Shown piece after piece: positions 859-6,796 of a DNA stretch of 64,000 bases. The position numbers were made by a program, and so were the translations under genes. The notes under the pieces are model-generated. The model saw only the letters and a program-made list of their open reading frames with translations. It was not told where the DNA came from and made no database searches. The stretch lies in sequence record LR999871; one strand, 5' to 3'. Each line of letters opens with the position of its first letter. Within the stretch, counting starts at the first letter, position 1. Source of the DNA: Escherichia phage vB_Eco_Jura.

Positions 859-1467
859 ATGTCTGAAAAACTATCAGGTGGTTTTAATAACTACTATCTG
901 GTTCAGGTAACCAACCCTCAACGTATGGAACAGCCTCCATATCAGGCCGAGTGTGAGGATATTATCCAAGCACTAAATATGACCTTTGATGAAGGGTGTC
1001 TGTTCAAGGCATTGTGGCGTAATGCTGCTGCTCGTTTAGGTAATGGTAAACCAGGTAACAATGCCGTTTATGATGCAGAGAAGATGATTCATTATGCTAA
1101 CCGTATTTTTACTAAAGAATCCGGTGGGCAGAAAAAAGAAGCAGAAGAACCAATCTCTGAAGCTCTGAAGAAGGGTGAAGAGATTCATATGTCTCTGTCT
1201 GAATTATTCACCCTGTTAACTGGTGAAGCAGCAGAAGGTGAAGTAATGAGCCTTGCTGGTTGGCATACCCATGTACCCAACCGTTTGGGTGTTATGCCTG
1301 TTGCTGTTGCAATGAGCAAAGCAGAACAAGTTGATGTAGTACGTGCCGATGGAACGACTATTACTCATGTGTTTCCTCATGAGATTGACTGGTCTGATAA
1401 GATTGCCCCCTTTGCTCGAATCACTGCATGGCGTTTCAGTAACCCATCTAAGGTCGCTTCTAAATGA
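859..1467 (+). CDS. hypothetical protein (202 aa), replication module
   Basis: ATG 2 nt after the upstream stop; part of a chain of coupled genes. Confidence 0.65.
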   Translation: MSEKLSGGFNNYYLVQVTNPQRMEQPPYQAECEDIIQALNMTFDEGCLFKALWRNAAARLGNGKPGNNAVYDAEKMIHYANRIFTKESGGQKKEAEEPISEALKKGEEIHMSLSELFTLLTGEAAEGEVMSLAGWHTHVPNRLGVMPVAVAMSKAEQVDVVRADGTTITHVFPHEIDWSDKIAPFARITAWRFSNPSKVASK

Positions 1468-2438
1468 AAATCACGAACAATCATGACGTGTCCTTGCCAT
1501 TAGCTGTCTGGCTTTTGCATGACGAGTATGATTACGTGAAGGATAAAAAGTATCTTTCTGTGACTACCCTGCTTAAGCCAATTAAGCACATTGTCATGAA
1601 GCATCGTGTAGACCTTTCTGTAGAAAGCATGGACATCATGGATTTGGTGTCCACTTCTATGGGTACAGGCTTACATGATTCTATTGAGAAGGCATGGCAT
1701 AACGGACACCACAATGCATTACGCAAGTTAGGGTATCCTGAGCGTGTCGTTCAGAATGTTGTCATCAACCCTACCCCTGAGCAGATTGCATCAAATCCAA
1801 ACTTAATTCCTGTATGGATAGAACAACGAGCAACTAAAAAGATTGCTGGTTGGACTATTGGGGGCAAGTTCGACATCGTTACTGAAGGTCTTCTTCAAGA
1901 TGTAAAATCCACCTCCACTTACACATGGGTAAAGGGTGGACGTGATGAAGAACATAAACTTCAGGGGTCAATGTATCGTTGGTTGCATGACGACAAGATT
2001 ACCGAAGATGTGATTCGTATTAACTACATCTTCACTGACTGGATGAAAGCATTAGCTACATCTCAAGAAAACTATCCAAAGCATCGTGTGCTGCATAAAG
2101 ACATTCCATTGATGTCTTATGAAGCGACTGAAGAATGGATTAAAGCCAAGCTGGCTCTCATTGATAAGTACTGGGATGCTCCTGAAAGCGAGATTCCAGA
2201 ATGTACTGATGAAGAGTTATGGCGTTCTGACCCAGTGTTTAAATACTTTGCTGACCCAGAGAAGGCAAAGCAACCTGGTGCTCGTTCTACCAAAAACTTC
2301 CCTACTCTCTTTGAGGCTCGGAAGTTCATGGCAGAGAAGGGCAAAGGCACTATTCTTCATGTTCCTGGTGAACCTAAACGATGCAACTATTGCTCAATTT
2401 TTAACATCTGCGAACAAAGAAAGAGATATTTCCCATGA
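1464..2438 (+). CDS. PD-(D/E)xK nuclease with C-terminal Cys cluster (RecB/Cas4-like exonuclease)
   Basis: ATGA overlap with upstream stop. Motifs in order GKFDIV (Asp), LQDVK (D/E-x-K), QGSMY (Q-x3-Y), then C-x2-C-x5-C at the C-terminus (CNYCSIFNIC) with a further upstream Cys (PECTDEE). Confidence 0.6.
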   Translation: MKITNNHDVSLPLAVWLLHDEYDYVKDKKYLSVTTLLKPIKHIVMKHRVDLSVESMDIMDLVSTSMGTGLHDSIEKAWHNGHHNALRKLGYPERVVQNVVINPTPEQIASNPNLIPVWIEQRATKKIAGWTIGGKFDIVTEGLLQDVKSTSTYTWVKGGRDEEHKLQGSMYRWLHDDKITEDVIRINYIFTDWMKALATSQENYPKHRVLHKDIPLMSYEATEEWIKAKLALIDKYWDAPESEIPECTDEELWRSDPVFKYFADPEKAKQPGARSTKNFPTLFEARKFMAEKGKGTILHVPGEPKRCNYCSIFNICEQRKRYFP

Positions 2439-5441: not shown

Positions 5442-6239
5442 ATGAGCAATTTATTCGGAAATCTGGCAGGTCAGGCAGCTAAAGCAGAGAAAGCAACGGA
5501 TAACCTGGGTGGTGGATTTGGTGCAAAAGAATCTGATATTTATCTGGCTACCCTGAAAGTAGCTTATGCAGGCAAAGCAGCTTCTGGTGCTAACTTCATT
5601 CAGATTATTGCAGACCTGACTGACCTTGATGGACACAGTGCTGGTGAATATCGTGAGCAACTGTACATCACTTCTGGTACTGAAAAAGGCTGCAAGTGTA
5701 CTTATGAAAAGAATGGTAAGGAATACTTCCTGCCAGGCTACACTGTAATCAATGACATCCTGGTAATGACTTCTGGTGAGACTATTCCTGAAGCAGTCTT
5801 CGAAGAGAAAGTCGTTAACGTATATGACTTCGATGAGAAGAAAGAAGTTGCCAAATCTGTCATGGTTCCAGTCAATGCTATCGGTGGTAAGTTTGCTGTA
5901 GCTATTCTGAAATCTGAAGAAGATAAGCAGACTAAAGATGGCTCCGGTAACTATGTGTCTACTGGTGAAACTCGTTTCACTAATACCATCGAAAAAGTAT
6001 TCCACCCTGACCTGCATCTGACTGTTGTTGAAGCAGAAGAACTGACTGAACGTGGTAAAGAACTGACCGTTGAAGAAGCAGTCTTTTGGGACAAATGGCT
6101 GGAGAAAAACAAAGGCGTTACCCGTGACAAAACCACTAAAGGCGGTGCTTCCGGTAAAGCTGGTCAGCCACCAAAACCAGGTGCTACTAACACTGGTGCG
6201 GGTGCTTCTGCTGCAAAATCTCTGTTCGGTAAGAAATAA
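5442..6239 (+). CDS. single-stranded DNA-binding protein candidate (265 aa)
   Basis: ATG preceded by AGGAAA. Gly-rich N-terminus and flexible Gly/Pro-rich C-terminal tail ending FGKK. Size and position (before resolvase, tRNAs and virion RNAP) fit my recollection of the N4 SSB locus; not verified by alignment. Confidence 0.5.
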   Translation: MSNLFGNLAGQAAKAEKATDNLGGGFGAKESDIYLATLKVAYAGKAASGANFIQIIADLTDLDGHSAGEYREQLYITSGTEKGCKCTYEKNGKEYFLPGYTVINDILVMTSGETIPEAVFEEKVVNVYDFDEKKEVAKSVMVPVNAIGGKFAVAILKSEEDKQTKDGSGNYVSTGETRFTNTIEKVFHPDLHLTVVEAEELTERGKELTVEEAVFWDKWLEKNKGVTRDKTTKGGASGKAGQPPKPGATNTGAGASAAKSLFGKK

Positions 6240-6796
6240 TGCAGATACCTGTGCTTGGAGTTGACCCCAGTTTTCGTAACTGGGGACTAGCACGGGGAAT
6301 GCTCGACTTAGAGACGGGAATACTCTCTGGATTAGACCTGAAGCTGGTAGAAACCAAACCTGATGGAACCAAGCAAGTAAGGCAGAACAGCAAAGATATG
6401 CAAGCTGCTGAGGACATTACTACTGGTGTCATCGACTGGTTCAAAGAAGCAAAGGTCATCTTTGTAGAGGTTCCCGTTGGCTCACAAAGTGCCAATGGAA
6501 TGAAATCCTATGGTGTTTGTGTAGGCATCTTAGGAGCACTCAGGGCACTAGGACATGAGATTATTGAAGTTACTCCTATCGAGAACAAAGTAGCTCTGTC
6601 CGGTATTAAGACTGCTTCTAAAGATGTGATGATTAGAGCAGCTACAGGATTTTATCCGGAAGCCAACTGGCTCACGGATACCAAAGGTAGGCTGCTCAAT
6701 AAGAACGAGCATTTAGCTGATGCTGTAGGTGCTATCCATGCAGGGGTACTCACTCCTGCTTTCCAGAATTTAATGAGAATTTTATCAAAGGTATAA
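6239..6796 (+). CDS. RuvC-like Holliday junction resolvase
   Basis: TAATG overlap with SSB stop. N-terminal VLGVDPS (RuvC: ILGIDPG), acidic IFVEVPV, and C-terminal HLADAVGAIHAG (RuvC: ADAADALAIAITH), in RuvC order. Confidence 0.55.
   Translation: MQIPVLGVDPSFRNWGLARGMLDLETGILSGLDLKLVETKPDGTKQVRQNSKDMQAAEDITTGVIDWFKEAKVIFVEVPVGSQSANGMKSYGVCVGILGALRALGHEIIEVTPIENKVALSGIKTASKDVMIRAATGFYPEANWLTDTKGRLLNKNEHLADAVGAIHAGVLTPAFQNLMRILSKV

Follow-up and report, generated by a model that had tools for sequence, protein, structure and literature searches.

Phage recombination systems such as lambda Red/RecET and the T4 UvsX–gp32–gp46/47–endonuclease VII set share a logic with the coliphage N4 genes described here, in which resection, SSB coating, annealing or strand exchange, and resolution lead to replication and concatemers. 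Comparing the parts, the predicted nuclease of the N4 block is Cas4-like, whereas lambda Red/RecET and T4 use lambda-Exo or Mre11/Rad50-like enzymes; the presumed annealase is of the Sak4 type instead of a Rad52-like Beta or a full RecA-like UvsX; and the candidate resolvase is of the RuvC or RusA type, in contrast to T4 endonuclease VII. In phage HK620, an AAA_24 core-only RecA-like ATPase is directly followed by its cognate noncanonical SSB, like gp44–gp45 of N4. Annealing by HK620 Sak4 is stimulated by SSB via the SSB C-terminal tail, and N4-like phages have been named among Sak4 carriers (Hutinet et al. 2018, PMC5928155). However, the HK620 module has no nuclease of its own and carries Abc2, which redirects RecBCD; its resolvase, RusA, lies elsewhere in the HK620 genome; and its SSB has an acidic/aromatic tail, NDYPPF, in place of the basic KSLFGKK of the N4 type.

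In N4 itself, gp43 (dns) has an unusual helicase-then-AEP order and is essential for replication (Kazlauskas et al. 2016). N4SSB is essential for replication and is also a late-transcription activator, its C-terminal residues being essential for this activation and for binding the C terminus of RNAP β′ (Lenneman & Rothman-Denes 2015), and Choi et al. 1995 give it in their title as required for all three of replication, recombination, and late transcription. As of 2013, N4-like phages were stated in one paper to have no known resolvase. Our literature search found no biochemical or genetic data on gp42, gp44, or gp46, and likewise none on N4 gene essentiality from CRISPRi-ART. While gp42, gp44, and gp46 are unnamed in the original N4 record, RefSeq already carries the labels exonuclease, DNA primase, Sak4-like ssDNA annealing protein, and SSB, and the BASEL record lists gp44 as "putative RecA-like" and gp46 as "putative RuvC-like recombination protein." The gene block is therefore already known and annotated, and the functions that had been predicted from the sequence agree with the current RefSeq and PHROG labels.

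The window, the whole 64,000-nt stretch of DNA that was analyzed, is on sequence grounds an Enquatrovirus N4 strain, with 1464–6796 corresponding to gp42–gp46 of the middle-gene DNA replication/recombination block (Table 1). This span is colinear with N4 26343–31675 (NC_008720/EF056009) over 100% of its length at 98.6% nucleotide identity, with identical genes, order, and boundaries and with point differences only; other N4 strains reach 99.6% over the block. At the protein level, 323/324 residues of gp42, 713/715 of gp43, 251/251 of gp44, 265/265 of gp45, and 183/185 of gp46 are identical to N4. A 127-nt unit is present in two copies in the window and in one in N4. The gp42 start and the gp46 stop coincide exactly with the limits given by the original prediction, and the four proteins that it named are real, with open reading frames at these limits, near-identical N4 proteins, and conserved synteny. 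Chance open reading frames were ruled out by the 99% identity to sequenced phages (98.6–99.6% for the block among N4-type phages) together with a gene order, gp42-43-44-45, that is kept in all 62 related loci having enough flanking DNA. There are gp42 homologs in 476 phage records, and nearly all that were sampled are 70–79 kb N4-like genomes, and the block is conserved across Schitoviridae.

Table 1 Features of the gp42–gp46 block and its flanks (window coordinates)
Feature	Position (nt)	Strand	Basis
gp39 DNA polymerase, 3′ end	1–521	+	colinear with N4; frame open from base 3 to 521
gp40	518–856	+	colinear with N4
gp41	859–1467	+	colinear with N4; ATGA overlap with gp42
gp42, predicted Cas4/RecB-family PD-(D/E)XK nuclease, 324 aa, 37.6 kDa	1464–2438	+	motifs, fold, four Cys
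gp42 predicted catalytic motifs	D137 1872–1874; D146-V-K148 1899–1907; Q167GSMY171 1962–1976	+	
gp42 four-Cys site	C247 in CTDEELW 2202–2222; C307-x2-C310-x5-C316 2382–2411	+	
gp43 (N4 dns), 715-aa helicase/AEP-primase fusion	2435–4582	+	Pfam, PHROG, N4 identity
gp43 N-terminal DUF3987/MCM-like SF6 helicase	about aa 39–376, nt 2549–3562	+	Pfam
gp43 C-terminal AEP primase with PriCT_1	PriCT_1 aa 652–705, nt 4388–4549	+	Pfam
gp44, Sak4-type core-only RecA-like ATPase, 251 aa	4641–5396, ATG start	+	AAA_24, PHROG 124
gp44 Walker A GFSAAGKS	4695–4718	+	
gp44 Walker B-like IIVD	4887–4898	+	
gp45, N4SSB, 265 aa	5442–6239	+	265/265 identical to N4 SSB AAA86389
gp45 N-terminal M-S-N-L-F-G-N-L	5442–5465	+	
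gp45 C-terminal K-S-L-F-G-K-K tail	6216–6236	+	
gp46, candidate RuvC-like Holliday-junction resolvase, 185 aa	6239–6796	+	fold, tetrad, PHROG 159
gp46 predicted catalytic tetrad	D9 6263–6265; E77 6467–6469; H158 and D161 6710–6721	+	
gp47, 147 aa, outside the predicted span	6799–7242	+	PHROG 33948
gp47 C-terminal P-S-L-F-A-G-L-K-R tail	7213–7239	+	

The span holds five genes, including gp43, which makes up 40% of it. Translational coupling had been proposed for the whole set; the only overlapping junctions are gp41/42 (ATGA), gp42/43 (ATGA), and gp45/46 (TAATG), and gp43–gp44 and gp44–gp45 are spaced by 58 and 45 nt, with a Shine–Dalgarno sequence for each gene. A scan for sigma-70 promoters gave fewer sites than expected, which fits transcription of the block by the phage RNAPII, and an Rfam scan detected four tRNAs downstream and nothing else. 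Profile searches, named beforehand as a test of the functional calls, returned the predicted functions and none that were unrelated. NCBIfam assigned no family to the six proteins searched, with only a subthreshold P-loop match for gp44, and searches of PDB sequences with single gp42, gp44, gp45, and gp46 and with three profiles returned nothing usable, the gp46 profile giving the best match, to RuvC at E 0.3.

The largest gene in the span, gp43, is the essential replicative helicase-primase. It matches PHROG 2135 "DNA primase" with 1205 bits, the primase PHROGs covering aa 505–706, and Pfam PriCT_1 with 38.3 bits, while DUF3987 falls just below its cutoff (25.4 bits versus 27). The small Walker A/B ATPase of the original prediction is borne out as Sak4-type, with gp44 matching AAA_24 at 45.7 bits (E 9e-12, cutoff 27) and PHROG 124 "Sak4-like ssDNA annealing protein" at E 4e-45. 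AAA_24 covers most of the protein, namely residues 27–228 of a 263-aa translation started at TTG, or about 15–216 of the 251 aa. That TTG at 4605 is unlikely to be the start, as the ATG at 4641 is preceded by AAGAGGA and agrees with RefSeq. Similarity between gp44 and HK620 Sak4 by BLASTP is confined to the Walker A region. An annealing role for gp44 is predicted from its AAA_24/Sak4 membership, HK620 Sak4 being the sole Sak4 for which SSB-stimulated annealing has been shown. The ssb gene begins 45 nt 3′ of gp44, in the Sak4-then-SSB order of HK620.

The SSB candidate is identical over all 265 residues to the experimentally characterized N4SSB and matches PHROG 743 at E 5e-77. N4SSB and the HK620 SSB gave no match to each other by BLASTP, Pfam gave no match, and hhalign with 59 orthologs returned a weak match (E 0.012, probability 3.7%). 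A relation of N4SSB to DUF669 has been published at 98% HHsearch probability (Kazlauskas et al. 2016).

Very probably, gp42–gp46 form the replication/recombination segment of N4, combining resection, coating, annealing, priming, and junction cutting. In the model that we draw from fold, motifs, and context, which covers the roles of gp42, gp44, and gp46 as well as the order of events, gp42 would resect DNA ends at terminal repeats or breaks, most likely with 5′→3′ polarity, exposing 3′ single strands that N4SSB would coat. With help from the neighboring SSB, gp44 would anneal these coated strands to complementary single strands, giving rise to concatemers and priming gp43 and the polymerase gp39 for recombination-dependent synthesis. 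Ahead of packaging, gp46 would cut the four-way or branched junctions thus formed. Family analogy is the ground for assuming this polarity and for linking gp42 tentatively to a 5′→3′ exonuclease activity of N4 reported in the 1980s. The segment is not self-sufficient, because the DNA polymerase gp39 lies outside it and a second helicase, gp37, is encoded outside the window. The idea of a compact, self-sufficient recombination kit was overstated on these grounds; it also omitted gp43, the largest gene, and N4SSB serves late transcription as well.

A different, unlikely reading is that this is a replisome block in which recombination is incidental, with gp42 acting as a Dna2/EXO5-like fork, flap, or end nuclease and gp44 as a loader or accessory ATPase of gp43 instead of an annealase. 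The weight of gp43 in the span and its essential role in replication speak for it, as do the position of gp44 directly after gp43 with co-occurrence in 62/62 loci, the presence of Dna2 and EXO5 among the best structural matches of gp42, an N4 polymerase without a 5′–3′ exonuclease domain, and the location of the block between polymerase and SSB. However, gp44 belongs to AAA_24/Sak4, a family with demonstrated SSB-stimulated annealing, shows the typical Sak4–SSB pairing, and by Pfam, NCBIfam, and PHROG resembles no known helicase loader. A gp42 homolog from an archaeal virus (27% identical) lies directly upstream of an Erf-like annealase, which is a classic exonuclease–annealase pair. Moreover, a resolvase is always in the block: of the 62 related loci, 49 carry a RuvC-like gp46 and 13 a RusA-like resolvase in the slot that follows SSB, with both or neither in none, and this would have no point unless recombination gave rise to branched intermediates.

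Within the replication/recombination segment, the PD-(D/E)xK nuclease with a Cys cluster that had been predicted corresponds to gp42, which is Cas4/RecB-like in its motifs and fold. The fold resembles solved Cas4/RecB-type nucleases, and D137, D146-V-K148, and Q167-x3-Y171 are invariant in 150/150 representatives. PF12705 (PDDEXK_1) scores just under threshold for gp42 (20.4 bits versus a cutoff of 22) and is matched at E ≤ 0.01 by 31 of 73 diverse relatives. The protein contains exactly four cysteines, C247, C307, C310, and C316, and loss of the cluster in orthologs was not seen, as 148/148 diverse full-length relatives keep all four along with the catalytic motifs. No CRISPR-cas locus accompanies gp42; its neighbors in the phage replication operon are gp41 and the helicase-primase, and the 62 loci have this context too. 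Compared with Cas4 SSO0001 and the Fe-S PD-(D/E)XK nucleases (AddB/AdnB, Dna2, and EXO5), gp42 thus has no CRISPR setting and is about 120 aa larger.

The four-Cys site probably binds a 4Fe-4S cluster. In the canonical Cas4/AddB/Dna2/EXO5 proteins, the first Cys ligand is N-terminal to the nuclease core, whereas in gp42 the fourth ligand, C247 in CTDEELW, follows the core and is separated from the CxxC…C by an insert of about 60 aa; Fe-S binding is thus plausible but unproven. It is quite unlikely that the cysteines bind structural zinc or nothing at all, a reading that leaves the nuclease assignment in place. It draws on the off-canonical C247, with no Cys before residue 247, and on the predicted model, where C247–C307 is a separate small alpha/beta insert of lower pLDDT (66–78). 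Against it, C-x2-C-x5-C is the spacing that typifies the 4Fe-4S site of Cas4, AddB, Dna2, and EXO5, the nearest structural neighbors of gp42 are mostly Fe-S nucleases, and none of the four Cys varies among the 148 diverse relatives.

The RuvC-like call for gp46 was upheld by its predicted structure. The AF2 model (pLDDT 92) returned RuvC, MOC1, or phage bIL67 RuvC as all of the top 15 Foldseek matches in the PDB (E down to 2e-8, TM 0.62–0.78), the D-E-H-D tetrad is invariant in 31 homologs, and PHROG 159 "RuvC-like" was matched at E 5e-40. In Pfam, gp46 had no match at E ≤ 0.01, PF02075 included, and among the 120 homologs listed only 4 had a precomputed PF02075 match. It shares the RNase H-like fold of bacterial RuvC and lactococcal phage bIL67 RuvC (TM 0.6–0.78) and the catalytic tetrad of Thermus-type RuvC. 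However, gp46 is only 13–20% identical to RuvC and escapes Pfam detection, the phage has no RuvA/RuvB partners of its own, and gp46 is interchangeable with RusA in related phages. Together, the RuvC-like fold and tetrad and the swapping of its slot with RusA-like resolvases make gp46 a candidate junction resolvase. That gp46 is instead a nuclease of RNase H fold serving a different purpose, for example removal of RNA primers or a YqgF/RuvX-like role, is highly improbable: the missing Pfam match, the E of 0.3 against PDB sequences, and the RuvX and other RNase H-fold entries further down the Foldseek ranking are outweighed by the junction resolvases filling the top 15 structural matches, the invariant RuvC-type tetrad, and the RusA-like resolvase, of unrelated fold and the same function, found in the slot of every relative that lacks gp46.

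Just downstream of the span, gp47 probably belongs to the block as well. A small domain at its N terminus is followed by an acidic linker and by a C-terminal SLF tail, which is conserved in 39/41 distinct ortholog tails. It matches positions 135–270 of PHROG 33948, a RusA–gp47 fusion family, and in relatives the RusA version of the resolvase is often fused in one open reading frame to a gp47-like domain. In reference N4, an A-run that is 1 nt shorter causes a frameshift in gp47 and loss of the conserved SLF tail.

A peptide of the approximate form [RK]-x-S-L-F-[GA]-x-[KL] is found at both termini of SSB and at the C terminus of gp47. The SSB terminal motifs are conserved in 58–59 of 59 orthologs. 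The peptide could be a shared docking motif bringing SSB and the resolvase/gp47 to one hub, which could be the core of SSB, some protein of the replisome, or the C terminus of RNAP β′, known to bind that of SSB. The beta-clamp-binding consensus is QL[SD]LF. Only the last three of its five positions match the SLF tails, and N4 is reported to inhibit the host clamp loader; clamp binding was for both reasons rated below phage-internal or β′ docking. The joint reading in which gp47 is an extra member of the block, SLF is an undescribed wiring feature, and gp42 has a rearranged ligand topology is possible, and we put it forward only tentatively.

As given, the finding matters little, since it rediscovers annotated genes of a classic coliphage, and its value is that of a check. 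The labels of gp42 and gp46, both "hypothetical" until recently, are now supported by fold prediction and wide ortholog sampling, and misleading ones are corrected, as some records name gp42 "UvrD/Rep helicase" and gp41 "polynucleotide kinase." The either-or swap of RuvC and RusA, the RusA–gp47 fusion, and the SLF termini shared by SSB and gp47 provide inexpensive, testable leads on concatemer formation and resolution in Schitoviridae or on how N4SSB couples replication to late transcription. If the joint reading is true, gp42 and its relatives would be Cas4-like nucleases in which all four Cys follow the core, and SLF docking would tie the removal of recombination intermediates to both replication and late transcription.

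Over its full length, the span from 1464 to 6796 was matched in 16 phage records and shares 99.6% identity with the Escherichia phages vB_Eco_SPSP, AL25, and PMBT57, with the matching stretch of AL25 and PMBT57 lying at the very same coordinates. Coliphage N4 matched the span from 26343 to 31675 with 98.6% identity, and on this alignment the span therefore corresponds to N4 genes 42 to 46. The gp44 and gp45 proteins are identical to those of N4, and gp42, gp43, and gp46 differ at 1 of 324, 2 of 715, and 2 of 185 residues, respectively. Compared with the N4 record, the window is a circular permutation that starts inside the gp39 DNA polymerase gene; the gp39 reading frame stays open between bases 3 and 521. 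The starts and stops of the open reading frames were located where the original prediction had placed them. The four genes that it named (nuclease, ATPase, SSB, and resolvase) are all present, but the span holds five genes, and the largest, gp43, had been omitted. Translational coupling had also been claimed; overlaps were found only at gp41/gp42 and gp42/gp43 (both ATGA) and at gp45/gp46 (TAATG), and gaps of 58 and 45 nt separate gp43 from gp44 and gp44 from gp45.

Features of the block and its surroundings (window coordinates)
Feature	Coordinates	Strand	Remark
gp41	859-1467
gp42	1464-2438
gp43, 715 aa	2435-4582		Largest gene of the span
SLF-type peptides of gp45	5442-5465 and 6216-6236
gp47	6799-7242		Downstream of gp46
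SLF-type peptide of gp47	7213-7239
Perfect tandem duplication, 127-nt unit	7389-7515 and 7516-7642		Between gp47 and the tRNA cluster
Four-tRNA cluster	7700-8378		Asn-GTT, Ser-TGA, Thr-TGT, Pro-TGG
T-arm-like remnants	8154-8186 and 8253-8270		Not called tRNAs by ARAGORN or Rfam
GC-rich hairpin (GCCCCTCTAGTGAGGGGC)	9745-9762		T-runs on both strands; between the gp49 gene and the virion RNA polymerase gene, which converge
N4 virion RNA polymerase ORF, 3,506 aa	9771-20291	minus	Neighbouring ORF

The assignment of gp46 as a RuvC-like resolvase is supported by profile, structure, and active-site conservation. A Pfam search of gp46 returned no match; the phage family profile PHROG 159, "RuvC-like Holliday junction resolvase," was matched at E = 5e-40. 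The predicted model is confident (pLDDT 92), and its top 15 PDB matches are RuvC-family resolvases (E down to 2e-8; TM 0.62–0.78), including RuvC of Deinococcus, Thermus, E. coli, and Pseudomonas, chloroplast MOC1, and a lactococcal phage RuvC. The catalytic residues Asp9, Glu77, His158, and Asp161 are invariant in 31 homologues and match the Thermus-type RuvC tetrad.

A search of viral contigs with the gp42 alignment as query yielded 80 loci, and synteny was compared in the 62 that extend 6.5 kb or more beyond gp42 on its downstream side. In all 62, gp43, gp44, and gp45 follow gp42 in the same order. gp46 is present in 49, and in the remaining 13 (L036, L043, L044, L051, L054, L059, L064, L067, L072–L074, L076, and L077) the slot directly after the SSB gene holds a protein matched by PHROGs of RusA-like resolvases (E = 1e-25 to 1e-39). 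None of the 62 loci carries both resolvase types, and none lacks both. In the window, gp46 and gp47 together occupy 6239–7242. Of the contextual evidence gathered here, this exchange of one resolvase fold for another within a fixed slot speaks most strongly for the prediction of gp46 as a junction resolvase. Homologues of gp42 occur in 476 phage records, and 39 of 40 sampled across the ranking are N4-like genomes of 70 to 79 kb.

The gene-by-gene calls of the original prediction were right, and much of this content is already annotated. RefSeq N4 carries the labels exonuclease, DNA primase, Sak4-like ssDNA annealing protein, and SSB; the record of BASEL phage AlfredRasser lists gp44 and gp46 as "putative RecA-like" and "putative RuvC-like" recombination proteins, and in AL25, gp46 is named a crossover junction endodeoxyribonuclease. 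gp42, gp43, gp44, and gp46 were unnamed in the original 2006 N4 record, and according to a 2013 paper, N4-like phages had no known resolvase; recognition of these genes is thus recent but already in place. Some labels among records MZ501049, MG770228, and OW991345 are misleading. gp41 is labelled "polynucleotide kinase / 3'-phosphatase," although the match covers only ~80 C-terminal profile positions (229–305 of 316), and AlfredRasser calls gp42 a "UvrD/Rep family helicase," whereas gp42 is a predicted stand-alone nuclease.

The omitted gene, gp43, matched PHROG 2135 "DNA primase" with 1205 bits. In Pfam, PriCT_1 was matched at the C terminus (38.3 bits) and DUF3987 at residues 39 to 376 with 25.4 bits, against a cutoff of 27. 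N4 gp43 is "dns," which is essential for replication and is an unusual fusion of a DUF3987-family MCM-like SF6 helicase ahead of an AEP primase domain (Kazlauskas et al. 2016). Its essential role in replication is thus established for the window by identity to the characterised N4 protein together with the literature. Because gp43 is a helicase–primase fusion, 40% of the claimed "recombination module" is replicative. The description of the block as a "self-sufficient" kit was overstated, since a polymerase and a second helicase are needed as well, and N4 also needs several host functions.

gp42 has the nuclease residues Asp137, Asp146-Val-Lys148, and Gln167-x3-Tyr171 and exactly four cysteines, Cys247 and Cys307-x2-Cys310-x5-Cys316. 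It matched PHROG 2139 "exonuclease" (E = 1e-147) and a Cas-associated PHROG (E = 1e-9); its Pfam PDDEXK_1 score of 20.4 bits is slightly below the threshold of 22, and 31 of 73 diverse relatives matched this family. Conservation was assessed in 150 cluster representatives at 37 to 53% identity, of which 148 were full-length. Glu120, Asp137, Asp146, Lys148, Gln167, and Tyr171 are kept in 150/150. Loss of the cysteine cluster in orthologues, which the original prediction had named as a refuting result, was looked for and did not occur: all four cysteines were present in every full-length sequence (148/148). Canonical "iron staple" nucleases have their first ligand on the N-terminal side of the nuclease core. 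In contrast, gp42 has no cysteine ahead of residue 247, and its invariant fourth cysteine sits in a CTDEELW motif C-terminal to the core, separated from the C-x2-C-x5-C motif by an alpha/beta insert of ~60 residues. The four cysteines may bind an iron-sulfur cluster.

A distant homologue of gp42 (27% identity) with the same layout and the motifs CTDEE-W ... C-x3-C-x5-C was found in the archaeal virus vir555 (BK063671, locus L084; 1207–2818). Its gene immediately precedes an Erf-like annealase gene, whose start it overlaps; this is the classic exonuclease–annealase pairing and suggests that the annealase family partnering this nuclease differs between viruses.

For gp44, the best start is the ATG at 4641, which is preceded by AAGAGGA and agrees with the RefSeq start. 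The protein carries a Walker A motif (GFSAAGKS) and a Walker B–like IIVD, and the proposal of a possible Sak4-type ATPase is borne out by matches to Pfam AAA_24 (45.7 bits, far over the threshold of 27) and to PHROG 124, "Sak4-like ssDNA annealing protein." Sak4 of phage HK620 is a core-only RecA relative whose annealing and recombineering are boosted by the SSB of the adjacent gene via the SSB C-terminal tail, and N4-like phages are named among Sak4 carriers (Hutinet et al. 2018, PMC5928155). The sak4-then-ssb order is common to HK620 and gp44–gp45, and HK620 Sak4 likewise belongs to AAA_24; however, the two ATPases align by BLASTP only near Walker A.

The SSB candidate, gp45, is identical to N4SSB. 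N4SSB is essential for N4 DNA replication, binds the conserved C terminus of the E. coli RNA polymerase beta' subunit, and activates late transcription through its C-terminal residues and without needing ssDNA-binding activity (Lenneman and Rothman-Denes 2015). Its roles in replication and late transcription thus follow from identity to a characterised protein and from the literature; Choi et al. 1995 add, in their title, a requirement in recombination. Published work links N4SSB to DUF669-type SSBs (Kazlauskas et al. 2016); an hhalign comparison with the HK620 SSB did not convincingly recover this link (E = 0.012 at low probability).

gp47 is probably part of the block. Its sequence corresponds to the C-terminal half of PHROG 33948, a RusA–gp47 fusion family, and several RusA-carrying relatives encode the resolvase and a gp47-like domain in one ORF, with an acidic linker and an SLF tail; these fusions tie gp47 to the putative resolvase. 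Across loci L003 to L082, the N4-type SSB begins M-S-x-L-F-G-N-L (a hydrophobic-Phe pair within the first nine residues in 58/59 distinct orthologues) and ends [RK]-x-S-L-F-G-x-K (59/59), and gp47 orthologues end S-L-F-[AGS]-[GN]-L-[KR] (39/41). No other ORF of the window carries the SLF motif. A docking site common to SSB and gp47 is a reasonable proposal, and as the SSB C terminus is the published determinant of late-transcription activation, gp47 may dock where that terminus does. In the N4 reference (NC_008720, gp47 8836–9270), an A-run (GAAGAAGAAAA[A]GAAG; window site ~7168–7183) is one A shorter, so that in the annotated gp47 a frameshift alters the final ~20 residues and removes the SLFAGLKR tail, which is otherwise conserved. 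The missing A probably reflects either an error in sequencing the reference or a slippage variant.

Each copy of the downstream 127-nt duplication contains a hairpin with a 9-bp stem (GCGACTGG...CCAGTCGC), and N4 has a single copy of the unit, 96% identical. Sigma-70-type promoter-like sites are strongly under-represented in window 1–9800 (3 observed versus 20.4 ± 4.8 in shuffles), which is consistent with transcription of the block by phage RNAPII rather than host polymerase. The GC-rich hairpin beyond gp49 looks like a bidirectional terminator.

The main rival explanation places gp42 and gp44 at the fork rather than in recombination, with gp42 in Dna2/EXO5-like processing and gp44 as an accessory ATPase of the helicase. 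We regard this as unlikely, as it is weakened by the Sak4–SSB pairing, by the gp42 homologue paired with Erf, and by the obligatory resolvase. In the recombination pathway that we favor, gp42 would resect the linear, terminally repeated genome at its ends or at breaks, and N4SSB would coat the resulting single strands. gp44, aided by N4SSB, would then anneal the coated strands to complementary single strands, yielding concatemers and supplying gp43 and the gp39 polymerase with primers or templates, and gp46 would clear four-way or branched junctions before packaging.
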